A stretch of DNA of 64,000 nt from an uncultured virus (IMG/VR IMGVR_UViG_3300046832_003565) (Duplodnaviria; Heunggongvirae; Uroviricota; Caudoviricetes): IMG/VR virus record IMGVR_UViG_3300046832_003565. One strand, 5' to 3'. Every line of letters begins with the position of its first letter. Within the stretch, counting starts at the first letter, position 1. Below, in pieces: positions 6,925 to 59,901 of this stretch. Both the position numbers and the translations under genes were made by a program. The notes beneath the pieces were generated by a model. The model was not told where the DNA came from and made no database searches. It saw nothing but the letters and a program-made list of their open reading frames with translations.

Positions 6925-9633
6925 ATGCCTACAGATGTCATTATTGATCCATCAAGTGGTCAAATATACTGGAATGATGGCACTGGCTCACCTCAATCAA
7001 TTTCATTAGGTGGTAATGCTCAAGATACTATATCTGTAACTGGATATGGTGCAGTTTTCACTCCTGGTTCTACAGTTGGTGGTACTACTGTACTGGTAAG
7101 ATTCAAAGACTCTGCTCTAGAAACTTTAGCACCAGGAACAAATGGTTATGAATTAGGTTCTTCCACTTTAAGATGGAAATTATTTGCCACTACTGGTAAT
7201 TTTTCAGATTCTACAAATTCAACATCTTTAACAAGTGGTGCATTTCAAATACAAGGCGGTATAGCAGTTTCTGGAAATGCATCTTTTGGTCAGTCAGTAT
7301 TATTTTGGACTCCTGGTGGTGCTAACTATATTGGTTTTAGAGCACCAGCATCTGCGGGAAACACTACATATGTACTTCCTTCTGCTGCGCCTATATCTGG
7401 AGGCACTGGAACATCTGTCTTAAGCTCAGACCAAACAGGCATTTTATCATGGGTTCCAATGGTAGCTGGGGGGGCAGGTGGTGGTTCAAGCACCATTTCA
7501 ATTGTCACAGCAGGCATAAATCCAACACTTCATCCAGTATTATTTACTCCTACACAAGGAACTTCAGCTGCTGCAGCTGTTTCATCTAATACAACATTAT
7601 TATATTCACCCTCTACAGAAACTTTTTATGTTTCGGGCATATTAGTAACATCTACAACAGTTTCAAGCAATCAAGGTACTGGAGCAATATTAATTGCTGG
7701 TGGCATGGGTGTTTCTGGGCAAATTAACGCTGCCTCAATGCAAATTGCTGGTAATGCAGTTATCAGCGGTAACTTAACATTTAATGGTGTTGGAGTATTT
7801 GGAAACGCAACCTCAGACACTATCACTTCCTTAGCCAGATATGCTTCGGATTTATTACCTTCCACAGATAACTCTCATGATTTTGGTACATCTGCATTAG
7901 GATGGAGAAATACTTATTTTTCAGGTATAGGTACTTTCGCTGGAGCATTGAGAGTAACATCAAGTACCACATCTATTTCAACATCTACAGGTGCATTTTC
8001 TGTAACAGGTGGTGTTGGTATAGGTGGTTCATTATATGTTACTACATCTGTTCCATCTAATATATCTGGTTTTTATGTATTCAATGGAGTTCTTTCTGGA
8101 ACAGCAATAACAACCCCTAGTGTAACCGCCACAAATATAAGAACAACTGCAAGTACATTAAATATTGTTGACTCAGGTACTACAAATACTGTTTTGCAAT
8201 ACAATGGTACTAGATTTGGTGTATTGATCGCTGCTAATTCAACAAGTTCAAGTGATGGTGGATTGGTAACTACTGGTGGTGCTGGATTTGGTGGATCTAT
8301 CAATGTTAATGGAAATATAGGTGTAAGATCTGGATTTGAATTAAGAATATTTAATCCTGCTGATAATGCATACACAGGATTTGATTTTACTGGATCTGCG
8401 TCAACTACATATATTTTACCACCTGCTTCACCAGCTATTGGAAACTCTGTACTACAATCAACAACTGGTGGTGTGATGTCTTGGGTGCCAATGGCGACAG
8501 GAAGTGGTTCACCAGCTGGAAACAATACAGAATTGCAATTTAATAATGGTGGTACTTTTGGTGGTGCTACTGGAATAACTTATCAATCAACATCATATCT
8601 AGTTTCTATAGCATCTACTGCAGATCAAAGAGCAGTAACTACTGTAGGCTTAAGATTAGTTAACAATGCTACAGTGTCTGTTGCAGGTGTTCAACAAAGA
8701 TTTTCTCCAGCATTTGAAATTGCCGGTAAAACAGTTACAACACCAGCCACAGAAAATTTTAACAGATTCCTTACTGAAGTCGTAGGCACTATCAATTCGT
8801 ATGGTGCACAACAACAATGGAAATATAGTTTAGATACTGGAACTCCAACATATTCTAACCCAATTTTTGTAATTCATTCTCAAAAAGGTGTAGGTATTGG
8901 ATATTCTGCTATAACATTCCAAAATTTCTTTAGAGCTAGCGCTACTCAAGCAATTGAATTAACATATGTATTACCTGTAGCATACCCAGGCACTGGAACA
9001 TCAGTGTTGAGTTCAAATACCACAGGTGACTTATCTTGGGTACCAATGACAGCTGGTGGTTCTGGAACTCCAGGCGGTTCAAATAGGCAAATTCAATACA
9101 ATAATTCAACTACTTTTGGTGGTGCTTCTGGTTTTGAATATGTGTCTGCTGGTAATGCTGTCACAGTAAATATATTTGCAACCGCTGGTGGTGGTTCAAC
9201 TTCTGGTTTATCAATTAATACAATTAATGGAACTACAACAAGAATAGGTATTGGTCTTACAAATCCAGCATTTGAACTTGAAATTCGTGGTGAACTATCA
9301 GCAACAAACAAAAGCTTTGTAATTGATCACCCGACAAAACCAGGCATGAAGCTTCGATATGGATCATTAGAAGGTCCTGAAAACGGAGTTTATGTAAGAG
9401 GACAATTGCTAGGAACAAATATCATTGAAACTCCTGATTACTGGAGAGGTCTTGTTCATGATGATTCATGTACAATTCATTTAACACCAATTGGGAATTA
9501 TCAGCAACTTTATGTAGAAAAAATACAAGATTATAAAGTTTATGTTGGTACAGCAAGTACTTTTGAAATTAATTGTTTCTATTCAGTATGGGCTGAGAGA
9601 AAAGATATTTCAAAATTAAACGTGGAGTATTAA
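6925..9633 (+). CDS. Tail fibre-like protein with C-terminal KSF-HP-LEGPE domain
   Basis: G/S/T-rich; 'S-T-x-T-G-A-x-x-V-x-GG-x-G-I-GG' fibre repeats; three 'YxLP...SVLxS..G.LSWVPM' modules; RIGIGLTNP...ATNKSFVIDHP. Confidence 0.8.
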   Translation: MPTDVIIDPSSGQIYWNDGTGSPQSISLGGNAQDTISVTGYGAVFTPGSTVGGTTVLVRFKDSALETLAPGTNGYELGSSTLRWKLFATTGNFSDSTNSTSLTSGAFQIQGGIAVSGNASFGQSVLFWTPGGANYIGFRAPASAGNTTYVLPSAAPISGGTGTSVLSSDQTGILSWVPMVAGGAGGGSSTISIVTAGINPTLHPVLFTPTQGTSAAAAVSSNTTLLYSPSTETFYVSGILVTSTTVSSNQGTGAILIAGGMGVSGQINAASMQIAGNAVISGNLTFNGVGVFGNATSDTITSLARYASDLLPSTDNSHDFGTSALGWRNTYFSGIGTFAGALRVTSSTTSISTSTGAFSVTGGVGIGGSLYVTTSVPSNISGFYVFNGVLSGTAITTPSVTATNIRTTASTLNIVDSGTTNTVLQYNGTRFGVLIAANSTSSSDGGLVTTGGAGFGGSINVNGNIGVRSGFELRIFNPADNAYTGFDFTGSASTTYILPPASPAIGNSVLQSTTGGVMSWVPMATGSGSPAGNNTELQFNNGGTFGGATGITYQSTSYLVSIASTADQRAVTTVGLRLVNNATVSVAGVQQRFSPAFEIAGKTVTTPATENFNRFLTEVVGTINSYGAQQQWKYSLDTGTPTYSNPIFVIHSQKGVGIGYSAITFQNFFRASATQAIELTYVLPVAYPGTGTSVLSSNTTGDLSWVPMTAGGSGTPGGSNRQIQYNNSTTFGGASGFEYVSAGNAVTVNIFATAGGGSTSGLSINTINGTTTRIGIGLTNPAFELEIRGELSATNKSFVIDHPTKPGMKLRYGSLEGPENGVYVRGQLLGTNIIETPDYWRGLVHDDSCTIHLTPIGNYQQLYVEKIQDYKVYVGTASTFEINCFYSVWAERKDISKLNVEY

Positions 9634-17585: not shown

Positions 17586-18266
17586 ATGGAATTTGCAAAT
17601 TCTTTTTTAGATTTGAAGATAGCAAAAAAAAGTGTTGATAAAATCACAGTTGAATATACTTTTGATCTTCAAGATTTGCCTTATGGTTTTTCAGATTTAG
17701 AACCTGTTATTGATGCTACCACTATGCGGGTACATCATGGAAAACACCATAAAAAATATGCAGACAGCATGAATGAGATTTTAGATAAAAATCCAGGTAT
17801 GAAATCTAAAACTTTAGTAGAGCTTTTGCAAAACCCAGGCAAATTATCTGAAGAAGATAAAACCAAATTCTTAAATAATGCTGGTGGACATTTCAATCAC
17901 ACTTTTTTCTGGAGATCTATGACCCCAGAAATGAATCAAAAACCAACAGACAAGCTTGAAGAAGATATCAATAAGCAGTTTGGAAGTTTTGATAAATTCA
18001 AAAAAGAATTTATTGAAACAGGTGTGAAACATTTTGGATCTGGTTGGGTTTGGCTTTGTGTTGATAATGGAAAATTAAAAATACAAGGTTTTGCAAATCA
18101 ATCAAATCCATACATAGAAAAATGTGGTGTTCCTGTTCTAGGATGCGATGTATGGGAACATGCATACTATTTAAAATATCAAAACAATAGGGAAAAATAT
18201 TTGACAAATTGGTTCAAGGTGATAGATTGGTCTTTTGTGTCAAATTTGTATGAGGAAAACAAATGA
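17586..18266 (+). CDS. sodA: Fe/Mn superoxide dismutase (Mn-type signature)
   Basis: HHGKHH, NNAGGHFNH, FGSGWVWL, NQ, DVWEHAYY. Confidence 0.95.
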   Translation: MEFANSFLDLKIAKKSVDKITVEYTFDLQDLPYGFSDLEPVIDATTMRVHHGKHHKKYADSMNEILDKNPGMKSKTLVELLQNPGKLSEEDKTKFLNNAGGHFNHTFFWRSMTPEMNQKPTDKLEEDINKQFGSFDKFKKEFIETGVKHFGSGWVWLCVDNGKLKIQGFANQSNPYIEKCGVPVLGCDVWEHAYYLKYQNNREKYLTNWFKVIDWSFVSNLYEENK

Positions 18267-18643: not shown

Positions 18644-18889
18644 GTGAAAGAAAATAACTGGTCTTATATTGATGCTGATGGATTAAAAGCTGAATTGGCA
18701 CAAAGGTTGAGAATTTTAGAATTAAATAGATCGCTGATGCTTACTACTTTGAATATAACATCCACTTTATCTATAAATGATTTAGAAAAAATTTACAACA
18801 ATTTGTCAAAAAATCAAAAGAAAGCAAAAAATGGACTGGCAATATTTGAGTTGATAAAGTTCAAAAAAGAAAAAGAAAATCCAGATTAG
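18644..18889 (+). CDS. Hypothetical protein
   Basis: 81-aa GTG-start ORF. Confidence 0.5.
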   Translation: MKENNWSYIDADGLKAELAQRLRILELNRSLMLTTLNITSTLSINDLEKIYNNLSKNQKKAKNGLAIFELIKFKKEKENPD

Positions 18890-19278
18890 GATTTACAAGA
18901 ACCGCAGCCAGATCCCTCATTTAAGGTATCAATGCTATCTTCAGTTGAGAAACTTTTCCCACATCCACAGCTTTTTGTTGATGTGGGATTTGTAACTTTA
19001 AATCCACCCACTAAACCATTAGTTGAAACATAATCAATAATACAGCCATTTAAATATTTTGCAGATTTTTCTTCCACTGCTATTTTTACATCTTTGCTGT
19101 ACACAATAATTTCATCAATTTCAGGTTCGCCTTCAGAAATTGCAAGTCCATAAGTTAGACCAGAACATCCACCACCTGCAACATAAAAATTCAAATATAG
19201 ACTATCTACTTCCATATCAGCCATAGCATCTTTGATCTGTTGTGCTGCAACATCAGTTATTGTTATTTCAAGTTCCAT
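18886..19278 (-). CDS. iscA: Fe-S cluster assembly A-type carrier (IscA/HesB/ErpA family)
   Basis: 'ITITDVAA', 'GGGCSGLTYGL', 'IDYV...GGFKVTNP...SCGCGKSF'. Confidence 0.92.
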   Translation of the reverse strand: MELEITITDVAAQQIKDAMADMEVDSLYLNFYVAGGGCSGLTYGLAISEGEPEIDEIIVYSKDVKIAVEEKSAKYLNGCIIDYVSTNGLVGGFKVTNPTSTKSCGCGKSFSTEDSIDTLNEGSGCGSCKS

Positions 19279-19280
19279 TT

Positions 19281-20156
19281 TTATTTCAATATTTCAAATC
19301 TAGTAGCGTGAATTACAGGTCTTACTAAAACCAATCCAAGCGTTGTATCAACTAAAACTTGAGCTGTCAAGTCAGTTTCAGGTTCAACAGAATCAGTATG
19401 AACAATTAATCCTAAATTATGCATTCCAACAACAATTTTTTGCGCAAAATAAAGCAATGATGCCTCTTTATTTTCAGCTATTTGAAATTGCTTCAGCCAT
19501 GCACTCACCCAATCTTGTTCAACTATACTGTTATTTTTTTTGACAACCCAGTTTTCAGGATGCAATAAAGCTAAATCATATCGAGTGGAAAGTGATTTTA
19601 CATCTTCCATGTCATCACTGTTTGTAGCTTTAATACAAAGTTCACCATCAAATGAATCAATCAAAGTTTTGATTATTTTTAATGGTTCTTCAATTCTAAC
19701 ATGATAATCATGAAGCATTTCATTAAGTAATGTTTCAGCTTTGCCATAATTTTCATTCTCTAAAGCATCATTAAGTTCATAATGAATATCTAGTGAAGAT
19801 GATAAGTTTTTAAGATAATCTATCACTTCTTGTTCAGAAAGCAATAAAATATCTGAATCTTGAGTTCTGGCTAATTTAGGTTCAATCACTTTGAATTTAT
19901 ATAAATCTTCAATGATGATTTTATAATAGCCCCAAGCTTGATGGTTTATATTCAAAAAACATTCATGAATTAAGTTGCCATCACTTCCAAACACTTCTGT
20001 TGGAACAATTTGCATGAATGAATTGATTTCCGTATCACATAAACCTAGTGATGTAGTTTCAGCACCAAGCCTAATTGCACATTTTACAATTTCTTGATTG
20101 TCTTTTGTCCAAATAGCAATACCAGCTTCTAAAGCATATTCAGGTGTTTTTTCCAT
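19281..20156 (-). CDS. Hypothetical protein
   Basis: 291-aa ORF; TACAAT 6 nt upstream of ATG. Confidence 0.7.
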   Translation of the reverse strand: MEKTPEYALEAGIAIWTKDNQEIVKCAIRLGAETTSLGLCDTEINSFMQIVPTEVFGSDGNLIHECFLNINHQAWGYYKIIIEDLYKFKVIEPKLARTQDSDILLLSEQEVIDYLKNLSSSLDIHYELNDALENENYGKAETLLNEMLHDYHVRIEEPLKIIKTLIDSFDGELCIKATNSDDMEDVKSLSTRYDLALLHPENWVVKKNNSIVEQDWVSAWLKQFQIAENKEASLLYFAQKIVVGMHNLGLIVHTDSVEPETDLTAQVLVDTTLGLVLVRPVIHATRFEILK

Positions 20157-20173
20157 AAATATATTGTACCAGA

Positions 20174-20635
20174 TTAAAATTTAGCTTTAAAATCTAATTG
20201 GTAAATTTGTGTTGCAACGCCTTTGAATTGTGTTTGCAAAGTATCGGATGATTTGAATGAAAAATTCAAGGAACTATTAGGTCTTTGCAATGAATATGAC
20301 AATCCATAAAATTCATTATCTTTTTGGTTGGTAGCAGTTTTACTATTGTAAAAATTAGTGGATATTGTTCCACCAAACAATGATTTTATTCCATACTTGA
20401 CATTAAGATCATGTTCTTCAGCATTTTTTAAATCATTGCCTGCTAATAAACTTTTGAAATCTATTACAAAATTCTTATTTCTTTTAGATTCCAGAGAAGT
20501 ATTGATACTTGTAAGTTGACTGACACCATACTGGTTGAATTTGGGTTGGAAAGAAGGAATTGCAACACCTGGAATTTGTTGAGCATAAGATAATGTTGCC
20601 AAGGATAGTAAACCCAGTGATAATAAAAGTTTCAT
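20174..20635 (-). CDS. Secreted protein, possible outer-membrane beta-strand protein
   Basis: Signal peptide ending SYA; alternating beta pattern; C-terminal YQLDFKAKF; AGGAG SD. Confidence 0.6.
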   Translation of the reverse strand: MKLLLSLGLLSLATLSYAQQIPGVAIPSFQPKFNQYGVSQLTSINTSLESKRNKNFVIDFKSLLAGNDLKNAEEHDLNVKYGIKSLFGGTISTNFYNSKTATNQKDNEFYGLSYSLQRPNSSLNFSFKSSDTLQTQFKGVATQIYQLDFKAKF

Positions 20636-20689
20636 TTTATAGCTCTCCTATTGTATATATTCTGTATGAACAAATAGTTTACTTAAATT

Positions 20690-21446
20690 AAAAAAAGGAA
20701 GGTGAGACTATCCTTCCTTTTGCAATTTCGTTTACAGGATTACATCACTCGCAACATATGATTTGCCTGTTTGTCCACTATTTCTAGTCAAATTGCGCAA
20801 CCGCTTTTGTCTGGTAGCATTTCCAGTCTTATGTTAGTCTTGTTAAACATATGTGAAAGATTAGGTTCTTTTGAACCTGCACAATGTTCAAAGTGGTCGT
20901 TGCATTTACACTTTTTTCTTTTTTGGTTGCTTACAACTAACACGAGATACGTCTGTTTCATGAGTTAGTTATTGCTATCATATCAACGGAGTGCGATCTC
21001 TTTAATAACTATGAACCCGCTCTCTACAAAAGTGTGCGTATCTTGTTGCTCCTGAGTAAGGAATACAACTCACTTTAGTGCCTATTGCTCCACGGAAGCA
21101 GATAGACCTGATTTCAAGATTATAACGGAATAAAATAATTAATAACATCCGCAAAACCTCTCATCATGCTACAAAGCCCTTAATCGTGACTTCTCGGACC
21201 TTGTAACTACCTTTACATCTTAGGCTTCGGTAATGCTGTGCTTTACATATATTCAGCGTATATATGTCTGCTTTCACCTTATACCATAGTTCCAGACTTC
21301 GTTTCTGAAACTCACAGATGCTAGGCTTGCTTAATTGACCCCTGTTGGGCGGGAGCAGTAGAGACTTGCTTTATCCCTTTTTAATTACAGATATCTAACG
21401 ATGTTAAGCCACCGTATTTCTTATTTAGTTTTAAAAGTGCTTGTTA
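20690..21446 (-). ncRNA. Putative large structured non-coding RNA (~750 nt; GOLLD/ROOL size class)
   Basis: No credible ORF, higher GC than flanks, bounded by a sigma70 promoter and terminator, many short and nested stems. Confidence 0.7.
20693..20721 (-). terminator. Intrinsic terminator closing the putative ncRNA
   Basis: AAAAGGAAGG-N9-CCTTCCTTTT hairpin with a T-run on the minus strand. Confidence 0.8.
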
Positions 21447-21452
21447 CTTATT

Positions 21453-21481
21453 ATTATAAAACAAATTTACAATAATATCAA
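21453..21481 (-). promoter_or_regulatory. sigma70-type promoter for the putative ncRNA
   Basis: TTGATA (21481-21476)-N17-TATAAT (21458-21453). Confidence 0.75.
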
Positions 21482-21885
21482 TTAATCTTCCATTTTTTAG
21501 GAAGATAAATTTTTATGATGTCAGAAGCCCACCTTCTGCCTTCTTCACCACCATGCAATTTGTATTCCCAGTGGGTTGGATTCGTTCCTTTTTTGGAATA
21601 ACTGTATCTTTTATCAACTGTATATTCATGAATTTCTAAAATAGAAGATATTTCAAGATAGTTTCTAGTGTGTAATAATCTAGCAATTTCATATTGATTA
21701 TTATTGCCAAATTTTAACTTATCAAATCTTTTATCGTATGCTTCTTTTGCAACATCTTTTACTTCTTGTGGAATGTAAATTCTTTTTTTCAAGATGTCAT
21801 TTTTGTTTGCAATTTTGAATATAGCATCTGATAAATGATAAAGACCCAATCTATCAAGTTTGCAGCAAATCTTTACAAGGCTCAT
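21478..21885 (-). CDS. Hypothetical basic protein with N-terminal shared helical tag
   Basis: 'VKICCKLDRLGLYHLSDAIFKIA'; C-terminal 'YKLHGGEEGRRWA' motif. Confidence 0.7.
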   Translation of the reverse strand: MSLVKICCKLDRLGLYHLSDAIFKIANKNDILKKRIYIPQEVKDVAKEAYDKRFDKLKFGNNNQYEIARLLHTRNYLEISSILEIHEYTVDKRYSYSKKGTNPTHWEYKLHGGEEGRRWASDIIKIYLPKKWKIN

Positions 21886-21946
21886 ATAGTATATTTCTTT
21901 AATTTTCTAGTATATAACCTATATAAAGTGAAGGAGATAAAATAAA

Positions 21947-22585
21947 ATGCCAATTACTTTGAGCGAAGCTCTACAGTTTACGTTGAAATGGGAGGGTGGA
22001 TACACTAACCATCCTAAAGATCCTGGTGGAGCTACTAATTACGGAATTATCCAAGTTAGATATGATGAATATCGTAAATTTAAAGGTTTGCGATTAAATC
22101 CTGTAAAGAATATAACTGTTGCAGAATACATTGAGATATATGATAAATTTTATTGGGATCCTGTAAGAGCACAATATTTAGATGGAACTTTAGGTTTAGC
22201 ACTTTTTGATACAGCTGTAAATATGGGCACAGGTGGTGCTATATCCAGATTGCAAAAAGCATTGAATGTACCCATTACAGGCAAGTGGACTCAGGCTATT
22301 AGTGATGTAATTCATCAATCTGATCAGACGGCAGTTGCTTTAACAATTTGTAAACTTAGAATTGCGAAAAGATATGCAAGAGTTAAACAAAGAGCTGACC
22401 AAGTCGTATTTTTACGTGGTTGGTTAAATCGTGACAATGCATTGATTGCTAAAGTCAAGTCTATGGCTGGAATTCAATCTATGTCGGTTGATGATTTTTC
22501 ATATGATTTTGATGAAGAAGATGTTGTCACATCATATACAGATGAAGAATTAAATGAAGTTGACAAATATGACGAGGACAGATAA
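21947..22585 (+). CDS. Glycoside hydrolase family 108 lysozyme (endolysin) with acidic tail
   Basis: 'WEGGYTNHPKDPGGATNYGI', 'FDTAVNMG', 'FLRGWLNR'. Confidence 0.9.
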   Translation: MPITLSEALQFTLKWEGGYTNHPKDPGGATNYGIIQVRYDEYRKFKGLRLNPVKNITVAEYIEIYDKFYWDPVRAQYLDGTLGLALFDTAVNMGTGGAISRLQKALNVPITGKWTQAISDVIHQSDQTAVALTICKLRIAKRYARVKQRADQVVFLRGWLNRDNALIAKVKSMAGIQSMSVDDFSYDFDEEDVVTSYTDEELNEVDKYDEDR

Positions 22586-25052: not shown

Positions 25053-26168
25053 GTGGCATTTGAATTAATTAGAGAGCTTACTTCAGGCGTTGTAGGAAAT
25101 TATTGGAAAATAAGTTCAGCGTTGGTAGCTTGTACCGATAATCCAATTGTGGGTATCAATTTAGAATTATATCTCACAAGAGATGCTAGACTTGAGGGAA
25201 AGTCTTCAATTCTAAATGAAAATATCACTTTGTCTATCTATGACATTGATATGAGCTATTCCTTTGATTTCAGAGCATGTTTATATGCTGCATTGAGAAA
25301 TATATCACCATGGTCATCTGCAGTTGATGTATTTGATGATCCAAATAAATTGCCTGTTATTGCAGATGCAAGTATATTAACATCATTCAATACAGCTAAA
25401 ACAATTTCTCTTAATTCATGGGATCCTTTTAACTTGCCCTTGACATACAGTGTTGTAGAACAACCAACCAATGGTTTAATTTTTCTAAATGACAAAGAAT
25501 GCACATATACACCAAATGTTGGTTTTTATGGAATAGATTCTGCTAAATTTAAAACAAATAATGGAGAATTTGATTCTTCTATTGCAAATATAAATATCCA
25601 AGTTGAAGATACAAACGAAAGACCCATGTCATTTGATTCTTCTATATCAACATCATTCAATACAGCTAAAACAATTTCTCTTAATTCATGGGATCCTTTC
25701 AACTTGCCTTTAGTATATAGTATTGTAGAACAGCCTACTAATGGTTCAATTGTACTAAATGACAAACAATGTACATATACTCCTAATAATGGTTTTTATG
25801 GCATAGATTCTGCTAAATTTAAAACAAATAATGGAGAATTTGATTCTTCTATTGCAAATATAAATATCCAAGTTGAAGATACAAACGAAAGACCTATTTC
25901 ATTTGATTCTTCTTTATCGTTAGATATGGACAATGATTGTTTGATTAATTTCAATGCTAATGACCCTAATAACTTGCCCTTATCCTATATAATTACAGAA
26001 GGACCATTTAATGGATCAATTCTTGTAAACAATGATATCTACACTTACCGTCCAAATCTAAGTTTTAGTGGTTCTGATTATATAATTTATAAATCTTCAA
26101 ATGGAAATTTTGAAAGCATGTCTGCTAGAATTGATTTTAACATAGCTCCTGGAGAAATAATTGAATAA
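25053..26168 (+). CDS. Ig-like (Big_9/tandem-95-type) repeat protein
   Basis: Three 'LxY.IV..P.NG......YTP..GF.G.D...F..NNG...S..A.I.I.V' units. Confidence 0.8.
   Translation: MAFELIRELTSGVVGNYWKISSALVACTDNPIVGINLELYLTRDARLEGKSSILNENITLSIYDIDMSYSFDFRACLYAALRNISPWSSAVDVFDDPNKLPVIADASILTSFNTAKTISLNSWDPFNLPLTYSVVEQPTNGLIFLNDKECTYTPNVGFYGIDSAKFKTNNGEFDSSIANINIQVEDTNERPMSFDSSISTSFNTAKTISLNSWDPFNLPLVYSIVEQPTNGSIVLNDKQCTYTPNNGFYGIDSAKFKTNNGEFDSSIANINIQVEDTNERPISFDSSLSLDMDNDCLINFNANDPNNLPLSYIITEGPFNGSILVNNDIYTYRPNLSFSGSDYIIYKSSNGNFESMSARIDFNIAPGEIIE
25379..25918 (+). repeat. Recent 270-bp tandem duplication inside the Ig-like gene
   Basis: CATCATTCAATACAGCTAAAACAATTTCTC at 25381 and 25651; long identical stretches. 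Confidence 0.9.
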
Positions 26169-31505: not shown

Positions 31506-32687
31506 TTAGTTTTCAAACAATCTTCCTGGATCACCAAAAGATATTCTATCTGGTAGATCATAAGATTCAACTAAATCAAAATCTTGCTGAAAATCTAAAT
31601 CAAACAATTGTAAATTAATATCTTCTTGTTTGACAGTACGGGTGAACCTGATGCCAACAATCAATGGGATTTCTTTCAGATTTAGTGTTGGCATACTGTC
31701 CCAAAGTTTTTTTGCAATTATTGTCCAATATTTATAATCTAAAGATGCAATTGCTATTGGAGAAACTTTTTTAAATGTTCCTCTTCTTTTAGTTTCAGTG
31801 TTTCTCCAAGATAAATAAATTGATATTCTTTTAGCCCCTATACGATTTTTATTTAATCTTTCAAGTCCTTTGAACAATAAAGATTCAAACACTTCGTATG
31901 AGCCAAAATCATCCCTTTTTTCAGGTGGCAATACATGTGTATGACCAAAAGATTTAGGTATTTCATTGTTTGATAAACCATAATCGCATTGTAATGAACC
32001 ACGAATCATGTGCCACCATCGAGCGCCAATGATACTACCCCAAGCTTTTTTCAATTTCAATTCATTTAAAGAAAATAAATCTTCAATAGTACGAATTTTA
32101 GATATATTTAATCTAGATTCCATTCTTTCAGCAATACCAGGCAAATCTGTAAGTGAGAGTGTTTTTAGTTTGTCTTCAGTGTCAATGCCAAATGCTGTAA
32201 ATCCATTGGGTTTATTCAAATCAGCTGCTACTTTTGATAAAAAAACGTTACTAGCAACACCAATAGAACAACCTATATGGTCTCCGATAGCATCCATTAG
32301 ATCTATTTTTAGATGAGCAGCAATCATTTCACATTCAAAGTCATCATCTTCATCAATTTCGCATGCCATTTCATCAATGGACAGTATTTGAATGTTTTTG
32401 AAATGTTTATATAAAACTTCAATTATTTTATTGTGTATTTCAACATATCTTTTAGGTCTTGCTTCAGTGACAATTAAATTGGGAATGCGAGATTTTGCAT
32501 CTTTGACTCTTGTTCCAGTTTTTACTTTTAAATGTTTAGCTTCGTAAGATGCTGCAATAGCGCAAGTGTAATCGGAAATACAAGGCACAACAATAACAGG
32601 TTTGCCCCTGTATTCAACATTGTCTTGTTGTTCTACAGAGGCATAAAAAGAATCAAAATCTATAAATAATCGCCTGTATTGTGACAT
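31506..32687 (-). CDS. dinB: Y-family DNA polymerase (DinB/Pol IV-like)
   Basis: 'IDFDSFYASVEQ', 'IAASYEAK', 'SIDE', 'SIGVASN.FLSKVAAD..KPNG'. Confidence 0.92.
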   Translation of the reverse strand: MSQYRRLFIDFDSFYASVEQQDNVEYRGKPVIVVPCISDYTCAIAASYEAKHLKVKTGTRVKDAKSRIPNLIVTEARPKRYVEIHNKIIEVLYKHFKNIQILSIDEMACEIDEDDDFECEMIAAHLKIDLMDAIGDHIGCSIGVASNVFLSKVAADLNKPNGFTAFGIDTEDKLKTLSLTDLPGIAERMESRLNISKIRTIEDLFSLNELKLKKAWGSIIGARWWHMIRGSLQCDYGLSNNEIPKSFGHTHVLPPEKRDDFGSYEVFESLLFKGLERLNKNRIGAKRISIYLSWRNTETKRRGTFKKVSPIAIASLDYKYWTIIAKKLWDSMPTLNLKEIPLIVGIRFTRTVKQEDINLQLFDLDFQQDFDLVESYDLPDRISFGDPGRLFEN

Positions 32688-33287: not shown

Positions 33288-36100
<2,813 letters not shown>

Positions 36101-40990: not shown

Positions 40991-41542
40991 CTACTTTATT
41001 TTAGACCATGGAAGAGAATGTAGTTTTTCAAGGGATGTGCCCCTGTAAAGGACACTCTTGTTTCTTCTATCAGAAATCTTCCAACCGACAATACCATCAT
41101 TTGCAACGATTTGCCTTTCAATATCTTTCAATGTTAAAAGTTGATCCAAAGATGGTCGTGTGAAACACTGAACAAACATAGCACGTCCTGGATTGATAAG
41201 CAACCTAATCACTCCAGAAAAATTCAATAATTCTGATGTGGCAGAAAATTTACCTCTATGATCAGAACCTTCACTTAATAATTTTCTTGCTACATCTTCA
41301 TGATCCACAACTTGACCAGATACTTTTCCGTCACGCAAAATCCAATGTCCATAAATTTTTACATCAGGTACATTTTCAATTGTCATTAAATAGTTAAGGA
41401 AATTATCATTGTCAATATCTATCATTTCTTTGTCAAAAAGCTGTGGATTTTTCAAAACACTTCTTTCTGTCCAATTGCCTTCATAGTAAGAATGAATTTT
41501 TACTAACTTTTTATTTAAAATATCACAAACATCATAATCCAT
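40991..41542 (-). CDS. Hypothetical protein
   Basis: 'GHWILRDG...DHEDVA' motif; TATAAT 6 nt upstream. Confidence 0.65.
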   Translation of the reverse strand: MDYDVCDILNKKLVKIHSYYEGNWTERSVLKNPQLFDKEMIDIDNDNFLNYLMTIENVPDVKIYGHWILRDGKVSGQVVDHEDVARKLLSEGSDHRGKFSATSELLNFSGVIRLLINPGRAMFVQCFTRPSLDQLLTLKDIERQIVANDGIVGWKISDRRNKSVLYRGTSLEKLHSLPWSKIK

Positions 41543-41635
41543 ATATTTATTATACCTTTTTAAATAAAAGGATAGGTTTTAAATGGAAAATAAAATAATA
41601 TAATTTATGTCAGAAGAATAAAGGGGGAAGTTCGG

Positions 41636-41857
41636 ATGATAATAAGCTACATTGCAGCCATCTTTTCGCTGATAGGTATCTGGCTAAACATAAATAAAAA
41701 AGCCACCTGTTGGTACTTTTTCATTGTTAGTGATTCTTTATGGTTTATTTATTCATTGTTTACAAAACAATGGGCAATAACAATTGTTCACACATGTTTT
41801 ATGTTTGTAAACTTTTATGGTTTTTATACTTGGTCAAAAAAAATACCCAAGTCATAA
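41636..41857 (+). CDS. Short PnuC-like membrane protein (3 TM)
   Basis: 'SLIGIWLN..K...W.F.IVS..LW...F.FVNFYGFY.W'. Confidence 0.6.
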   Translation: MIISYIAAIFSLIGIWLNINKKATCWYFFIVSDSLWFIYSLFTKQWAITIVHTCFMFVNFYGFYTWSKKIPKS

Positions 41858-42094
41858 TTCATCAATAAGTTTTCGCATGCTCATAATATAAACAGAAGAA
41901 TATGCAATATTTTCAATCAATCGTTTGATGATTTTTTTCTTCTCTTGAGAATTTTCATCGTTATTGATTAGATTTTCGCTAACAACATCATTGCCAAGCT
42001 CTTGTGTTAAAGCTACTAATTGAATATAAATTTCAAGTAATTCGTTATACTTTGAGTTATATTCATTTTTTTTGGATTTGAAAATTTCATCCAT
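41852..42094 (-). CDS. Hypothetical protein
   Basis: Start moved to MDEIFK; TATAAA 6 nt upstream. Confidence 0.55.
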   Translation of the reverse strand: MDEIFKSKKNEYNSKYNELLEIYIQLVALTQELGNDVVSENLINNDENSQEKKKIIKRLIENIAYSSVYIMSMRKLIDEL

Positions 42095-42168
42095 ACTACA
42101 TTTATACGCAGGAACATAAACTTTATACTTGTAAAAAATAAACATAAGTACTGAAAAAGGATTAAAAA

Positions 42169-42534
42169 ATGTCTGATTTTAAAGAAATATTGTTTGAGAT
42201 GAATAGAATTATCACTTCATTGTCTGAAGTTGGATATGATAAAGAAGCTAGTATTCTTCATGATGAATTTGTAAAACTTTCACAAAAAGCGCCAATGATG
42301 AAATCAAAGCCAGCACCTAAAATGAAGCCTGGTGATATTCCTACAGATCCAGATAGCGAAGATCCATCTATCAATAAGCCAATGCCTAAGAAGCCTACAC
42401 CTAAACCTGTTATGAAGCCAAAACCAGCTCCAAAAAAACCTATGATGCCTGACCCAAATAAAATGACTCAGAAAGAATTGGACAATTTTGAGACTGATTA
42501 CAAGAGTATGAAAAAACCTAGAACTAAAAAGTAA
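42169..42534 (+). CDS. Pro/Lys/Met-rich protein with helical tag
   Basis: 'ITSLSEVGYDKEASILHDEFVKLSQ' then low-complexity KP repeats; AAGGA SD. Confidence 0.7.
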   Translation: MSDFKEILFEMNRIITSLSEVGYDKEASILHDEFVKLSQKAPMMKSKPAPKMKPGDIPTDPDSEDPSINKPMPKKPTPKPVMKPKPAPKKPMMPDPNKMTQKELDNFETDYKSMKKPRTKK

Positions 42535-56976: not shown

Positions 56977-59901
56977 ATGTTTAATTATAGATTAGTTATT
57001 GCTGGCATTCAAGATGATATTAAGAAAATATGCGATGCAAAAAAATTAGATCAGAGTCAATTTAAAAGCATATATGAATATGTAAATAAATTTGATGGAA
57101 TTTATAAACTTTTGGCAGCATGGCTTGCTGCAAGAAACATTACTCCTGATGAATATATTTCAACCTTGATGAAATATGAAAATAATAAAAGGTTTGATAA
57201 AACAAAATTAAGTGTCCAACCTACATATGTAATTATGGATGGATTAAAATATGAAGATGGACCTTCCCTGGAAGACGATTTTGCCAGCCTTAAACTGACT
57301 GAGTATATTCACAGCACATATCCAATTTTGAATATTGAGATGAAAGCTGAAAAAAATGATCTTATTCCAGTACTAGAAGGAGATGGAATCAAAATCTATG
57401 AGGTTAACAATGTTCATGAATCTAGAGCTGCAGGAGCAGGAACAACTTGGTGTATAGCATATCCTGCTTCAAATAATCTTTGGCAATCTTATAGAGATTC
57501 TGTGGAAGCTACTTTTTTTATTGTTCATGACGAGAATCCACCTACGCCCGAACAAAGTAGAGTGGCAGTTGACTTTAACAATAGAGAAGTAAGTCTTACA
57601 GATATTCCTAATTCAACAGGTACACGATTATCTAATGGAATGGATTGGAATGAATATAAGGAATATCTCATAAGTAAAAATGTACCTGTAGATGCCACAA
57701 GAATAAATCCAAAAACCAATCAAGAAGAATTAGTTTTAAAAAATAAGCCTTTCACTGATCAAGAATATCTTCAAAAATTAACATTCGAAATGTTAAGTCG
57801 ATACGAAGCCTTAAAATTAGATACTGTCAATCTTTGGAATCAAAACAGATCAATAATAAGAAAAATCACATCGCAAGGAGATCAAGAAAGATATCAAAAA
57901 TTAATTCAAAAATATCCTTTAATAGAAGATAGCAATAATGGCGAAGTTGTCATTAAAAATCCATTTTCAAAATTTTATTTATCTAATTGGATAGGTGTTG
58001 GCAATAAAATATCTGATAAAGTTTTAGATTATATTCTTCAGGCAGCAAATGGAAAAGAACTGTTATTAAAATATGTTAGCACAGGTATTCCGATACCAAA
58101 AGAACATTTTGAAAAAATCTCATTAAATAAAAACTTAGCTAATACATATATTTTCAAATATACTCAAGGGCTTGAATTTAATGGTTATTGGGGATCTGAT
58201 TTTAACAACAATGGAATCATGGATTATTTGATTGCCAATAGAGATGAAAAAAGAATTTTTGATATTTTCGTTAAGGTTGAAAATATCGATGTATCTAGTT
58301 ATCCAGAATTTGTTAAAGATATATATGATAAATCATTGCTCCAAAATGGAGGATTTTACAATCAACATGAAAGATTAAGTTTCGATAATCCTGAGCATAT
58401 TGAATTTATAAATAACAATCAACCTAAAAACAATGTACCATTCTTTCAAATGGTAAGCAGAGATCCGAGATTTATTAAAATACCTAGAATTTTTAGAAGG
58501 TGGATCTATGAAAACTACATTGTAAGTTCCGATATTTTCAATGAAATGTCTGATGTGCAAAGGAAAATTTTCATACTTGGAGGCGGACAAACTTATTATG
58601 AATTAGATGTTATTAATGATTTTATAAAAAATCACATTGATTTATATATGTTTGATGTTGATGAAGTAAATAAATTAGTTTCTGAGATTAAATATGAAAA
58701 TCCAGACTATATTGCAATACTGCAAAAGAATTTAGATGATAGAAATTTATTCCCAGCATATTCAAAAACAGAAAATTTAGAAATACAAGAGGCTGTTCAA
58801 GATTCTAAAATTGGATTCATAGTTAATGACGCTAAAACATTCACTGAGATTTACAAAGTACTAGTGAAAGCTCCATCTGAAAATATAGAAACAGATGACA
58901 CTGAATATAAAAACTATTTAAAAAATGAATTGTTAGATAAATTCAATCTTATGCCATTAATTGCATATATTGGGGACGAGATATTTAAATATTTTCCTGA
59001 ACTAGCAGAAAACAGAGATTTATGGATATCTTGGATAAAAATCGATTGGATTTATTCGCAAAAAAGAAATCAAAAACATGGTTATAAAATAATCACTTTT
59101 ATGCCTGAACGTTTTTATGATGATGATGAAATCCTAAATCTTTTGATAAATCCAGTAAACAAAGATGAAATGATGACTATTCTTTTAACTAAGGATACTT
59201 TTTTCAATCATCCTAAACTCATGCAAAGATTTTTAGATTTCATTGATGGAGATTCTAATTTTTATACCTTAGCAGAAATTCCCTATACAAACAATCATAA
59301 AGAATGGGTAAAAGCTGTTTATAAAAAATTGATGAGTAAAAATCGTGAATATTACAAAGACCTTTACAATCTAGAGTATGTTCAAGATCCAATGATGTAT
59401 TTAGAAGTTTATAAAGAAATTTTTGCTGAAGATGTTGATTCTATATTAGGAGCTATGTCAAGCAATAAAATAGACATATTAAATAAAAAATTATCAATTT
59501 ACAGCATAGATGAACTTTTCACTTCTTATCGTGATGTCATGAAAAAATTGATGACAATAATGCCTTTAAAATTCAATGCATTATTAAGAAAAAGAGCATG
59601 GGAAGAATTTCCTGAATTAAAAGATTCTATCATCGAAAAAGAAAGTCAGAAATATGGTGCGCCTGATTATTTTGATGAAGAATTAGGCGTGGTAGTTCAA
59701 GGATCAAGATTTAAAAAACAAATGCCAGAAATTGATAAACCTGAAATTCTTGAAGAAAATCCTCAAGTGCCAAATGAAGAAAATACTGATGTACTAGCTC
59801 ATTTATCATCTGTTGTTAAAGTGGCTAAAATACTAGATTTGAAAAATAGATATTATTTTGCAGATAAACTTACAAAATATTTAGGTAAATACAATGTTTA
59901 A
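56977..59901 (+). CDS. Large paralogue 1 ('T(T/S)WCIAY' domain) with C-terminal helical tag
   Basis: 'GDGIKIYEV...GTTWCIAY...NLWQSYR...TFFIVHDENPP'; ends KVAKILDLKNRYYFADKLTKYLGKYNV. Confidence 0.8.
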   Translation: MFNYRLVIAGIQDDIKKICDAKKLDQSQFKSIYEYVNKFDGIYKLLAAWLAARNITPDEYISTLMKYENNKRFDKTKLSVQPTYVIMDGLKYEDGPSLEDDFASLKLTEYIHSTYPILNIEMKAEKNDLIPVLEGDGIKIYEVNNVHESRAAGAGTTWCIAYPASNNLWQSYRDSVEATFFIVHDENPPTPEQSRVAVDFNNREVSLTDIPNSTGTRLSNGMDWNEYKEYLISKNVPVDATRINPKTNQEELVLKNKPFTDQEYLQKLTFEMLSRYEALKLDTVNLWNQNRSIIRKITSQGDQERYQKLIQKYPLIEDSNNGEVVIKNPFSKFYLSNWIGVGNKISDKVLDYILQAANGKELLLKYVSTGIPIPKEHFEKISLNKNLANTYIFKYTQGLEFNGYWGSDFNNNGIMDYLIANRDEKRIFDIFVKVENIDVSSYPEFVKDIYDKSLLQNGGFYNQHERLSFDNPEHIEFINNNQPKNNVPFFQMVSRDPRFIKIPRIFRRWIYENYIVSSDIFNEMSDVQRKIFILGGGQTYYELDVINDFIKNHIDLYMFDVDEVNKLVSEIKYENPDYIAILQKNLDDRNLFPAYSKTENLEIQEAVQDSKIGFIVNDAKTFTEIYKVLVKAPSENIETDDTEYKNYLKNELLDKFNLMPLIAYIGDEIFKYFPELAENRDLWISWIKIDWIYSQKRNQKHGYKIITFMPERFYDDDEILNLLINPVNKDEMMTILLTKDTFFNHPKLMQRFLDFIDGDSNFYTLAEIPYTNNHKEWVKAVYKKLMSKNREYYKDLYNLEYVQDPMMYLEVYKEIFAEDVDSILGAMSSNKIDILNKKLSIYSIDELFTSYRDVMKKLMTIMPLKFNALLRKRAWEEFPELKDSIIEKESQKYGAPDYFDEELGVVVQGSRFKKQMPEIDKPEILEENPQVPNEENTDVLAHLSSVVKVAKILDLKNRYYFADKLTKYLGKYNV

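Follow-up and report, generated by a model that had tools for sequence, protein, structure and literature searches.

To our knowledge, very few bacterial or phage RNAs longer than 500 nucleotides (nt) adopt intricate conserved folds: rRNA, RNase P RNA, group I and group II introns, OLE, GOLLD, ROOL, HEARO and raiA. GOLLD and ROOL have reportedly been shown recently to form RNA-only cages that exceed the ribosome in size, with a function that is unknown. These cages are homo-oligomers (14-mers or 8-mers) with kissing loops and A-minor contacts, and many GOLLD and ROOL genes adjoin tRNA genes. According to one report, both RNAs are phage encoded, measure 600–800+ nt, contain multiple pseudoknots and include a linker lacking conservation; their conserved loops proved to be intermolecular contacts, and ROOL is abundant with an unknown function (PMC12286853).

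We analysed a 64-kb stretch of DNA from an uncultured virus (IMG/VR record IMGVR_UViG_3300046832_003565; hereafter the window), in which an initial annotation made from the sequence had singled out a stand-alone gene for a structured non-coding RNA of about 750 nt. Compared with GOLLD as described in that report, this locus is likewise a phage-encoded stand-alone gene of about 750–800 nt with many helices and pseudoknots, a non-conserved internal region, an occurrence in lake metagenomes and an unknown function (PMC12286853). It differs from GOLLD, in which the 3′ half is conserved and the 5′ half varies, in that the 5′ part, core and 3′ domain are all conserved, and also in having no Rfam match and no adjacent tRNA and in being carried by a jumbo-phage clade. 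ROOL, too, is described there as a large RNA of phages or prophages that has several pseudoknots, a linker lacking conservation and conserved loops through which contacts are made, and this RNA resembles it (PMC12286853). ROOL, however, is about 580 nt long, belongs to Firmicutes-type phages and often lies near tRNA islands, whereas this RNA is about 750 nt long, comes from freshwater jumbo phages and has neither a nearby tRNA nor an Rfam match.

Rfam 15, which includes GOLLD, ROOL, RNase P RNA, tmRNA, 6S, SRP RNA, OLE, HEARO and raiA, gave no match in the 64-kb window at the gathering score. At E ≤ 10, the RNAs of the window, L020 and L008 returned only unrelated sub-threshold matches, GOLLD not being among them, and five homologue loci returned none at E ≤ 1. 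Neither ROOL nor group I or group II introns had a covariance-model match in the window RNA or the tested homologues. There was also no covariance-model match to RNase P RNA, tmRNA, 6S, SRP RNA, OLE, HEARO or raiA, no tmRNA by ARAGORN, and no riboswitch or leader family in Rfam that matched the RNA. The remark in the initial annotation that no tRNA is visible beside the RNA agrees with ARAGORN, which found none in the 64-kb window and none in 7 homologue loci. A literature search found no paper on such an RNA in jumbo phages. The motifs of a large survey of viral RNA motifs average 67 nt, and its supplementary tables could hold a fragment of this RNA (PMC10690425). The RNA belongs to an undescribed family that is not a recognisable homologue of GOLLD or ROOL and yet is the same kind of thing. 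The two options offered by the initial annotation were a divergent GOLLD/ROOL-like RNA and a new class, and the evidence favours the latter, no tested member having an Rfam match.

Transcription signals and expression

The RNA gene has a predicted span of 20690..21447 on the minus strand (about 750 nt; 757), with the 5′ end placed about 7 nt past the −10 box and the 3′ end at the T run of the terminator, and homology over its full length is found in 7 other distinct sequences. The flanking open reading frames (ORFs) lie at 20174–20635(−) and 21478–21885(−), in the same orientation as the RNA. Between them we found only chance ORFs of 30–65 amino acids (aa), and reading TAG, TGA or TAA as sense opened no frame across the region. 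One other gap of more than 600 nt separates ORFs of ≥100 aa in the 64-kb window (41542–42169); it is low in GC and contains ORFs of 73 and 97 aa. The description of the RNA region as ORF-free was confirmed, and its higher GC content was likewise borne out, at 0.38–0.40 (20750–21349) versus 0.28–0.31 in the flanks.

TTGATA-N17-TATAAT (21481–21453(−)), read as a promoter in the initial annotation, is the top promoter-like site of the region, with 11/12 matches. Promoter-like sites are overall no more frequent than chance predicts (10, against an expected 10.2); what supports the promoter is the conserved place of the −10 box. Its position is kept in all eight homologues (TATAAT in 7/8, TATAAG in 1/8), and its distance to the first conserved bases of the RNA is fixed even where a different gene lies upstream. 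A −35 element (TTGACA or TTGATA) occurs at the matching position with the same spacing in 4 of the 8 homologues. The 10-bp terminator that had been proposed for the other end is a real stem, in which 8 pairs are 100% paired and 7 of the 8 covary; a simple scan missed it because of its 9-nt loop. These signals, a dedicated sigma-70-type promoter and an intrinsic terminator that covaries, indicate that 20690–21447(−) is an independently transcribed gene. The generic features of an independent structured non-coding RNA gene were all found: promoter, terminator, absence of coding signal and a covarying conserved structure.

Variable alignment columns are spread over the three phases as 164/152/147 in the RNA, versus 149/103/246 in a neighbouring gene, so the RNA has no codon periodicity, and no ORF is conserved across the 8 homologues. 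Antisense ORFs of 64–96 aa occur in some homologues and are not conserved across the 8 sequences.

Metatranscriptome contigs from all four runs, representing four studies, match 20727–21397 at 99–100% identity (0–3 differences); such contigs are blind to ends, strand and abundance, and such libraries can contain DNA. Examples are contigs of 442 nt (20934–21375), 360 nt (20925–21284) and 241 nt (21157–21397), and variant contigs carry an alternative form of insert V1 resembling that of L010/L014. RNA runs of six studies (n = 6) contained 0.32–0.47 of the sampled words. No RNA-library contig fell on 21453–22400, 19800–20060 or 20235–20669, whereas the RNA had coverage, and uncovered contig parts are not evidence of abundance or ends. 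Three contigs from three runs stop at 20925, which we rejected as an RNA end: an A-rich tract starts there, and an assembly break is more likely. Fourteen DNA runs with the stretch were left uncounted, the source sample possibly being among them. We conclude that the RNA is real, expressed, single copy, large and structured.

Homologues and genomic neighbourhood

Relatives of the full-length RNA occupy the same genomic position in 7 other distinct contigs, at 70–80% nucleotide identity; these comprise contigs from metagenomes, two from jumbo phages (316 and 358 kb) and one binned in a metagenome-assembled genome (MAG). The whole ~750 nt was recovered at 72–75% identity in L007, L008, L009, L010 and L012 (blastn, nhmmer), the jumbo-phage contigs L013 and L014 also carry the full RNA, and the match in L020 has an E-value of 9e-177. 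Our alignment of 8 sequences left out L006 (identical to the window RNA, ending after 214 nt), L012 (near-identical to L007) and L011 (too short to reach the RNA), and it represents about 4–5 lineages: (window, L013, L020), L007, (L008, L009) and (L010, L014). RNA identity (70–79%) was no higher than that of the neighbouring 291-aa gene (fam3) in 2 of 4 comparisons.

The RNA is single copy: the window contains it once, as do both near-complete jumbo-phage records (358 kb and 316 kb). Covariance model R1 (20720–20829, covering H19 and the 3′ domain) gave exactly one strong copy per window or jumbo-phage record. Candidate second R1 copies (31841–31940, inside a DNA-polymerase ORF, and in G003) were weak, with E about 0.3, and were taken as noise. 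The RNA had no match among 50,697 phage records (blastn, distant mode), an exact 20-mer of it had 0 matches in viral_contigs, and five motif scans of viral_contigs returned the same two contigs each time and none further. Of the motif scans of genome_contigs, the first was empty and the second returned L020 and L019; L019 contained no RNA by nhmmer, and we attribute its match to chance agreement with a 19-base pattern. L001, a 21-kb relative by its GroEL marker (71% aa identity), has no RNA and is uninformative, being a 6%-complete fragment. The carriers of the family form a clade of uncultured jumbo phages from fresh water, whose genomes measure roughly 350–400 kb.

In 4 of the 8 loci, an inserted DUF3431 gene intervenes between the 135-aa gene (fam1) and the RNA. 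The gene next downstream of the RNA is fam5 in 4 loci; L014 has a different gene there, and in L008 the RNA is followed directly by fam3, fam5 being absent in these two. The 135-aa protein has no relative in viral_contigs, the two flanking proteins had no match among 50,697 phage records (tblastn), and neither the 135-aa nor the 291-aa protein matched Pfam or PHROG. AlphaFold predicts a helical bundle for the 135-aa protein (pLDDT 83.6), without an informative fold match (best Foldseek E-value 1.1; best VIA Z-score 5.2, to a designed protein), and the low-confidence model of the 291-aa protein (pLDDT 66.7) gave no fold match (best Foldseek E-value 0.47).

Conserved fold of the RNA

RNAalifold, applied to 7 sequences, proposed 153 pairs, 61 with a compensatory change. 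Our final model (model C, 8 sequences) comprises 25 helices with 163 pairs. Of its 1301 cells, 97.5% are paired, versus 38.2–41.7% when the partner was slid by 1–3 columns as a control, a comparison in which the model's value is inflated because it was built from the same sequences that were scored. Both sides change in 76 pairs of model C versus 6–15 in the slid controls, although independent compensatory events are far fewer than covarying pairs, since the 8 distinct sequences represent about 4–5 lineages. None of 500 column shuffles reached the observed value. The fold is strand-specific owing to its G–U pairs: 97.5% of cells are paired on the minus strand versus 88.3% on the plus strand, 123 cells are G–U, and 5 pairs are G–U in 8/8 sequences. 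The minimum free energy (MFE) has a z-score of −3.48, and 0 of 20 shuffles were equally stable. Support for the stand-alone structured RNA gene of the initial annotation comes from covariation, from conserved transcription signals at both ends, from the absence of coding signal and from RNA libraries that contain the sequence.

Table 1. Features of the RNA locus, with positions in the window.
Feature	Position	Strand	Description
135-aa gene (fam1), upstream	21478..21885	(-)	17 homologues; 5′ of the RNA in all loci
−35 box TTGATA	21476..21481	(-)	overlaps stop codon of upstream 135-aa gene
−10 box TATAAT	21453..21458	(-)	spacing N17 from TTGATA
Hairpin H1 (CGGUG/CAUCG)	21399..21414	(-)	loop GCUUAA 21404-21409 is PK1 5′ strand
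PK2 5′ strand UCUCUAC	21358..21364	(-)	partner GUAGAGA 21021-21027; 7 pairs, 100% paired
PK1 3′ strand UUAAGC	21329..21334	(-)	pairs with H1 loop; 6 pairs, 8/8 paired
Branched domain A (H4-H9)	21209..21326	(-)	21/32 pairs covary
Hairpin H9 ACAUAUAU/AUAUAUGU	21246-21266	(-)	within domain A; full compensation in L020
Long hairpin H10	21168..21207	(-)	14 pairs, 5 covary
Hairpin H11/H12	21109..21166	(-)	17 pairs, 11 covary
Hairpin H13	21080..21107	(-)	9 pairs, 3 covary; conserved CGUG in loop
Pseudoknotted core	20945..21076	(-)	PK3, H14, H15, PK2 3′ strand, H17
PK3	21071-21076 / 21029-21034	(-)	6 pairs, 100% paired, one compensatory change
Hairpin H14	21045-21069	(-)	9 pairs, 4 covary
H15	21037-21043 / 20945-20951	(-)	7 pairs, 100% paired, one compensatory change
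H17	21014-21018 / 20962-20966	(-)	closes variable insert V1 (20967-21013)
H18	20936-20943 / 20831-20838	(-)	8 pairs, 5 covary
Region within H18	20831..20943	(-)	PK4 5′ strand, A-rich tract, small hairpin, hypervariable insert V2
PK4 5′ strand GCAACC	20925-20930	(-)	inside H18
Small hairpin loop UGCAAC	20899-20904	(-)	invariant; inside H18
Hairpin H19 (CUGG/CCAG)	20811..20826	(-)	4 pairs, 1 covaries
PK4 3′ strand GGUUGC	20797..20802	(-)	6 pairs, 100% paired
3′ domain H20-H23	20722..20796	(-)	20 pairs, 10 covary
Intrinsic terminator	20690..20721	(-)	stem 20712-20719 / 20695-20702, extendable to 10 bp, then T run
153-aa gene (fam5), between RNA and fam3	20174..20635	(-)	in window, L007, L012, L013
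291-aa gene (fam3), downstream	19281..20156	(-)	3′ of RNA in 6/6 loci reaching far enough

The elements of model C are listed in Table 1. Every pair of PK1, PK2, PK3, H15 and PK4 is intact in 8/8 sequences (100%), and each of these helices contains 1–2 compensated pairs; for each pseudoknot, the support consists of one or two lineage-specific double changes. PK1 occurs as GCUUAA/UUAAGC, GCUUGA/UCAAGC and GUUUGA/UCAAAC, PK2 is compensated in L007 (C>U with G>A) and PK4 in L013 (C>U with G>A), and the end pair of PK4 shows R/Y covariation. In the model, four long-range or pseudoknot pairings are predicted to staple the 5′ region, the central core and the 3′ region together. The 5′ leader, of about 35 nt, has no assigned structure.

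Invariant positions that are unpaired in the model number 147. The molecule is most invariant in the joining strands of its core, such as GCACACUU, UAGAGAGCGGG and UAUCUC; the H10 loop motifs CGAGA and UCACG (21185–21196) are also invariant, as is the H23 loop GUUGCGA (20749–20755), which is complementary to the UGCAAC loop. Pairing of CCCGCC with GGCGG or GCGGG, and of UGCAAC with GUUGCG, joins segments that are complementary but invariant and hence invisible to covariation. Two peripheral inserts, V1 and V2, are hypervariable.

Several pairings were discarded. The H2 (AGGGA/UCUCU), H16 and closing helix CCGCC/GGCGG of the RNAalifold solution have no compensatory change and some broken cells, and we replaced them with PK2 and PK4 because the latter show compensatory changes. 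A GCUG/CAGC helix gave way to hairpin H9. A candidate pairing of 250–255 with 686–691 is wobble-rich, and its apparent compensation belongs to H10. By reasoning, pairing of CCCGC with GCGGG is incompatible with PK2, as no linker would remain.

Most of the stems picked out in the initial annotation have a place in this model. The stem ACATATAT/ATATATGT is helix H9, and the TGCT/AGCA hairpin is the inner part of H13. AGATACG/CGTATCT was recovered as H15, whereas AGTTATT/AATAACT, nested inside it, is a lineage-specific extension. The hairpin AGGTTC..GAACCT is kept with compensation, but only in the lineage of the window, L013 and L020. Long-range pairing between two CATATG segments had to be abandoned: neither copy is conserved, and the copy at 20755–20760 is the 5′ strand of H23.

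Candidate modes of action

We are all but certain that this is a real, new, structured RNA gene. As an explanation of the whole, we lean towards an uncatalogued non-coding RNA gene of jumbo phages with a trans-acting architectural function. Host RNA polymerase would transcribe the RNA, probably early in infection, and the transcript would fold into a compact particle locked by pseudoknots. It may then act in trans through its three-dimensional architecture, by self-assembly, by holding a macromolecular partner or by both, as thought for GOLLD and ROOL; neither antisense pairing nor cis-regulation would be its mode. The invariant loops may be tertiary or quaternary contacts. Taken on its own, the architectural, GOLLD/ROOL-like mode of action has nearly even chances in our view. 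A more specific proposal, which we hold only tentatively and think unlikely as it stands, is that this is a third, structurally unrelated class of giant phage RNA forming an RNA-only higher-order assembly, with PK1, PK4 and UGCAAC/GUUGCG as intermolecular contacts, or that a new large ribozyme has its active site in the interlocked invariant core.

Alternatively, the RNA may belong to a ribonucleoprotein, as its subunit or scaffold, or may be a decoy that ties up a protein of the host or the phage, with the always-adjacent 135-aa and 291-aa proteins as possible partners. Sequestration of RNA polymerase by 6S RNA and the partner proteins of OLE RNA are known examples of RNAs bound to proteins. 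Every locus has the 135-aa gene 5′ of the RNA, 6/6 loci of sufficient reach have the 291-aa gene 3′ of it, and the 147 invariant unpaired positions could be protein contacts. However, gene order shared within a narrow clade can reflect simple descent, the DUF3431 gene stands between the RNA and the 135-aa gene in 4/8 loci, and Pfam, PHROG and fold searches linked neither protein to a recognisable RNA-binding family or fold, which leaves a protein-partner role improbable in our view. We give still less credence to a new large ribozyme, RNA-processing or self-modifying, with the PK3/H14/H15/PK2/H17 core as its active site. The core of group I introns is an interlocked P3/P7 pseudoknot, and the strand order here (PK3-5′, hairpin, H15-5′, PK3-3′, hairpin, H15-3′) resembles it: both have an interlocked two-helix pseudoknot, hairpins between its strands and highly conserved joining strands, which in this RNA are its most invariant part. 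Yet a single hairpin, between the PK3 and H15 strands, takes the position of P4–P6, invariant junctions are just as characteristic of architectural RNAs that lack catalysis, and no known ribozyme family, large or small, matches. The RNA also runs from its own promoter to its own terminator between complete, unrelated genes and interrupts or splits no gene, and it differs from group II introns in having neither an Rfam match nor an internal ORF.

A cis-acting role, whether as a long 3′ untranslated region belonging to the 135-aa gene or as a giant leader or riboswitch that serves the genes downstream, would fit the shared orientation of the RNA and both neighbours, and read-through from the upstream gene is possible because the −35 box overlaps its stop codon. 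Against this, the RNA keeps its own −10 box in 8/8 loci, even with the DUF3431 gene upstream, and a covarying, constitutively formed terminator precedes the next gene. The downstream gene itself varies between loci, and no riboswitch or leader family matches, making such a role highly improbable. Were there no functional RNA at all, the region would be a decayed protein gene or a DNA element (a replication origin or packaging site) with palindromes that mimic stems. What speaks for this is only the absence of ORFs, together with the antisense ORFs of 64–96 aa in some homologues, but those ORFs are not conserved and substitutions show no 3-base periodicity. The strand-specific fold, the lack of repeats or iterons tying the region to the rest of the window and the presence of the sequence in RNA-library contigs also oppose it, and we regard it as close to refuted.

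As a new and well-delimited family of about 750 nt, this RNA enlarges the small group of giant structured RNAs that have no known job. Its helix map, testable pseudoknots, defined inserts and presence in metatranscriptomes make it a ready candidate for cryo-EM and biochemistry. The question of what GOLLD and ROOL do thereby broadens into one of why giant structured RNAs arise again and again in the evolution of large phages. If the reading as an RNA-only assembly or a ribozyme is true, the jumbo phages of lakes would constitute a source of giant functional RNAs that has yet to be tapped.

The transcription unit and its homologues

The window belongs to a large phage genome of low GC content, and its PHROG matches include GroEL, a clamp loader, DNA polymerase, thymidylate synthase, methyltransferases, an HNH endonuclease and an endolysin. 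Between the ORFs at 20174-20635(-) and 21478-21885(-), we found an 842-nt stretch containing only chance ORFs of 30-65 aa, and recoding TAG, TGA or TAA as sense opened no frame across it. Its GC content is 0.38-0.40, compared with 0.28-0.31 in the flanks. The initial annotation had called it the single conspicuous ORF-free, GC-rich stretch, which is fair: large ORFs leave just one further long gap, at 41542-42169, and this is low in GC and occupied by ORFs of 73 and 97 aa. The minus-strand RNA had a folding energy of -188.6 kcal/mol, versus -166.1 +/- 6.5 kcal/mol for shuffled sequences (z = -3.48), none of the 20 being equally stable.

The 135-aa protein encoded 5' of the RNA has 17 relatives in a large protein collection, and a metagenome scan with an alignment of its relatives (A1) yielded seven loci. 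Five (L007, L008, L009, L010 and L012) contain the full ~750-nt stretch at 72-75% identity (blastn and nhmmer); L006 is a truncated sequence identical to the window, and L011, too short, ends before the RNA position. Scanning further contigs with conserved RNA blocks as DNA patterns revealed the RNA in two IMG/VR contigs (358,269 and 315,852 nt; estimated 89% and 88% complete) and in one contig, L020, binned in a metagenome-assembled genome (MAG). A second pattern match, L019, lacked the RNA and was regarded as fortuitous. In five scans of viral contigs, no RNA-bearing contig beyond the same two was returned. The distribution of the family looks restricted to a narrow clade of uncultured jumbo phages, and the run labels and loci indicate lakes and rivers. 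By BLAST, the 358-kb record, the 316-kb record and the MAG each contain one copy, and a covariance model (R1) of helix H19 and the 3' domain gave one strong copy per phage record and one in the window. L020 is a 5.8-kb contig bearing the RNA and the 135-aa gene in a MAG labelled Rickettsiaceae; it most likely reflects the binning of a phage contig together with a genome, or else hints at the host.

A -10 box was present in all eight distinct sequences (TATAAT in seven, TATAAG in one) at a constant distance from the first conserved bases, whether the upstream gene was the 135-aa gene or an inserted DUF3431 gene. Half of them also had TTGACA or TTGATA 17 nt upstream of it. The 3' hairpin survives wholesale sequence change (AAGGAAGG/CCUUCCUU versus GGCCAGGA/UCCUGGCC, GGGCUAGG/CCUAGCCC and others), with covariation in seven of the eight pairs of the terminator hairpin.

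Six metatranscriptome runs from six studies contained 0.32-0.47 of the sampled words of 20600-21600, and four of these runs (four studies), compared with 19800-22400, yielded assembled contigs that lie on 20727-21397 and carry 0-3 differences; examples are listed in the table. Variant contigs depart from the window at 21015, 21148 and 21210 and there resemble variable insert V1 of the type seen in L010 and L014. The RNA and its relatives are thus present in RNA-derived libraries from several places, although such libraries can contain DNA and assembled contigs give no RNA ends, strand or level. Contigs from three runs start or stop exactly at 20925, where the A-rich tract in helix H18 has its border. 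The probable cause is an assembly break, with a processing site as a less likely one.

Covariation and architecture of the RNA

RNAalifold on seven sequences gave 153 pairs, 61 with a compensatory double change. In this alignment, 97.3% of cells were paired, compared with 38-42.5% when partners were slid by 1-3 columns; the slid controls had 3-12 double-change pairs, and none of 500 shuffles matched the observed values. Looking for additional complementary runs that pair in every sequence revealed long-range pairings with covariation, which replaced three alifold helices that had none. The final structure, model C, was built on the eight-sequence alignment A4 and has 163 pairs in 25 helices. 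Here 97.5% of cells were paired (slid controls, 38.2-41.7%), both sides changed in 76 pairs (6-15) and the covariation score was 0.388 (0.054-0.088). None of 500 shuffles matched the observed value on four of five measures, and 1 of 500 did so on further pair types. These values come from the same sequences from which the model was derived, eight sequences representing four or five lineages, and the support for each pseudoknot is one or two lineage-specific double changes. The fold is strand-specific: pairing would fall to 88.3% on the opposite strand. G-U accounted for 123 of 1301 paired cells, and five pairs were G-U in all eight sequences.

In model C, the core is predicted to be an interlocked pseudoknot of PK3 and H15. 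Invariant positions make up 297 of 760 in the window, 147 of them unpaired in the model, including UCACG (H10 loop) and GUUGCGA (H23 loop). GUUGCGA complements an invariant UGCAAC loop within H18, making the two a candidate kissing contact. Of the six pairings named in the initial annotation, all but the long-range CATATG/CATATG pairing are confirmed.

Features of the window and its homologues, with predicted helices of model C
Feature	Position	Strand	Remarks
Promoter-like site	21481-21453	-	TTGATA-N17-TATAAT; best of the region, 11/12 matches; 5' of the stretch
5' hairpin H1	21399-21414	-
PK1	H1 loop with 21329-21334	-	three covarying versions: GCUUAA/UUAAGC, GCUUGA/UCAAGC, GUUUGA/UCAAAC
PK2	21358-21364 with 21021-21027	-	UCUCUAC with GUAGAGA, 330 nt apart; both sides changed in L007
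Branched domain A, H4-H9	21209-21326	-	between PK2 strands
Long hairpins H10, H11/12, H13	21080-21207	-	between PK2 strands
Core PK3	21071-21076 / 21029-21034	-	encloses hairpin H14 and 5' strand of H15
Core H15	21037-21043 / 20945-20951	-	3' partner beyond H17 and V1
Variable insert V1	20967-21013	-
H18	20936-20943 / 20831-20838	-	encloses PK4 5' strand, A-rich tract, small hairpin and V2
PK4	20925-20930 with 20797-20802	-	GCAACC on 5' side; both sides changed in jumbo-phage contig L013
Loop of small covarying hairpin in H18	20899-20904	-	invariant loop UGCAAC
Hypervariable insert V2	within H18	-
H19, then four-helix 3' domain, then terminator	20722-20796 (3' domain)	-
Terminator	20690-20721	-	GC-rich hairpin and T run; 3' end of stretch
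Metatranscriptome contig, 442 nt	20934-21375
Metatranscriptome contig, 360 nt	20925-21284
Metatranscriptome contig, 253 nt	20925-21177
Metatranscriptome contig, 241 nt	21157-21397
Metatranscriptome contig, 199 nt	20727-20925
Fe/Mn superoxide dismutase	17586-18266	+
IscA-like Fe-S assembly protein	18886-19278	-
GroEL	33288-34898	-
DUF3431-like copies	L008 754-2809 and 3924-4625		also in L009, L010 and L014
Repeat ORF, 1845 aa	1027-6564	+	largely 72-nt (24-aa) tandem units
Three block-sharing ORFs			974 aa, 901 aa and >469 aa; no PHROG match for any

Gene neighbourhood and other features of the window

The conserved gene order is endolysin (opposite strand), 135-aa gene, RNA, 291-aa gene and IscA-like gene, with a 153-aa gene following the RNA in some loci; the gene 3' of the RNA varies from locus to locus. 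The 135-aa and 291-aa proteins had no family match, and their predicted folds gave no informative match. In four of eight loci, one DUF3431 copy is inserted precisely between the 135-aa gene and the RNA promoter. This DUF3431-like gene (about 235 aa) reaches four copies per locus in some relatives, and the family seems to be expanding and mobile in these phages. Auxiliary genes for superoxide dismutase, an IscA-like protein and a full-length GroEL (PHROG E 1.9e-161) lie close to the RNA locus.

Elsewhere, the repeats of the 1845-aa ORF include a 30-nt core present 34 times and a 300-nt block present 16 times. The C terminus of this ORF and the 902-aa ORF (6925-9633, +) match the same PHROGs of unknown function (phrog_17490 and phrog_28536), and the two look like a pair of highly repetitive fibre or surface proteins. 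The 371-aa ORF at 25053-26168 contains a 270-nt direct tandem duplication (25373-25912; 91% identical). Three consecutive large ORFs are tandem paralogues, because a 300-nt block (57352-57651, 60266-60565 and 62967-63266; 62-74% identity) is common to all three.

Relation to known RNAs and proposed mode of action

Rfam contains GOLLD, ROOL, group I/II introns, RNase P, tmRNA, OLE and HEARO. None of these was among our Rfam matches. The entire 64-kb window had no match at gathering score to the 4227 models of Rfam 15; with permissive filters, the 1.2-kb region gave five unrelated matches only (10-19 bits against gathering scores of 35-80). The L020 and L008 homologues gave other unrelated sub-threshold matches in the same test, no family was shared between the members tested, and five homologue loci had no match at E<=1. 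Neither the window nor any of seven homologue loci had a tRNA or tmRNA by ARAGORN, and blastn of the RNA against 50,697 phage records returned nothing. We found no description in the literature of such an RNA in jumbo phages. A large survey of viral RNA motifs gives an average motif of 67 nt and a requirement for three IMG/VR regions (PMC10690425).

We are highly confident that the stretch is a genuine, new gene for a structured RNA. It runs from promoter to terminator, and its RNA is long, non-coding, strand-specific, heavily paired and pseudoknotted. Variable columns fall evenly by phase (164, 152 and 147 of 254, 253 and 253), compared with 149, 103 and 246 of 292 each in the 291-aa gene, and the longest stop-free stretches in any frame of the eight RNAs (60-118 aa) include none common to all; a decayed gene or DNA element is scarcely credible. 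The RNA gene is kept in place while neighbouring genes change. Its own conserved -10 box, covarying 3' hairpin and variable next gene argue against a 3' UTR, leader or riboswitch, leaving a cis-acting UTR very improbable. A new ribozyme, for which the group-I-like interlocked core speaks, is rather unlikely, and the RNA failed all membership tests for introns, RNase P, tmRNA and riboswitches. An RNA that serves as a ribonucleoprotein scaffold or protein decoy is somewhat less doubtful, yet still unlikely.

GOLLD and ROOL are described as phage-borne RNAs with a non-conserved linker, whose conserved loops make inter-subunit contacts in RNA-only cages (PMC12286853). The window RNA fails membership of either family, having neither a model match nor a tRNA context, but resembles them in being phage-borne with long-range pairings, variable inserts and invariant loops, a functional likeness by analogy only. 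Because this pattern matches, we lean towards the combined claim of a new RNA gene whose product may act in trans as an architectural RNA of the GOLLD/ROOL functional kind. As the promoter is of the sigma-70 type, such an RNA would be transcribed by the host polymerase, probably early. Four long-range pairings would join its 5' part, its centre and its 3' part in a single compact body with V1 and V2 at the periphery, and the invariant loops and junctions could make tertiary, quaternary or partner contacts. We class the RNA as a new family of large ornate phage RNAs, a kind that is already known, and consider it of high interest to RNA structural biologists.
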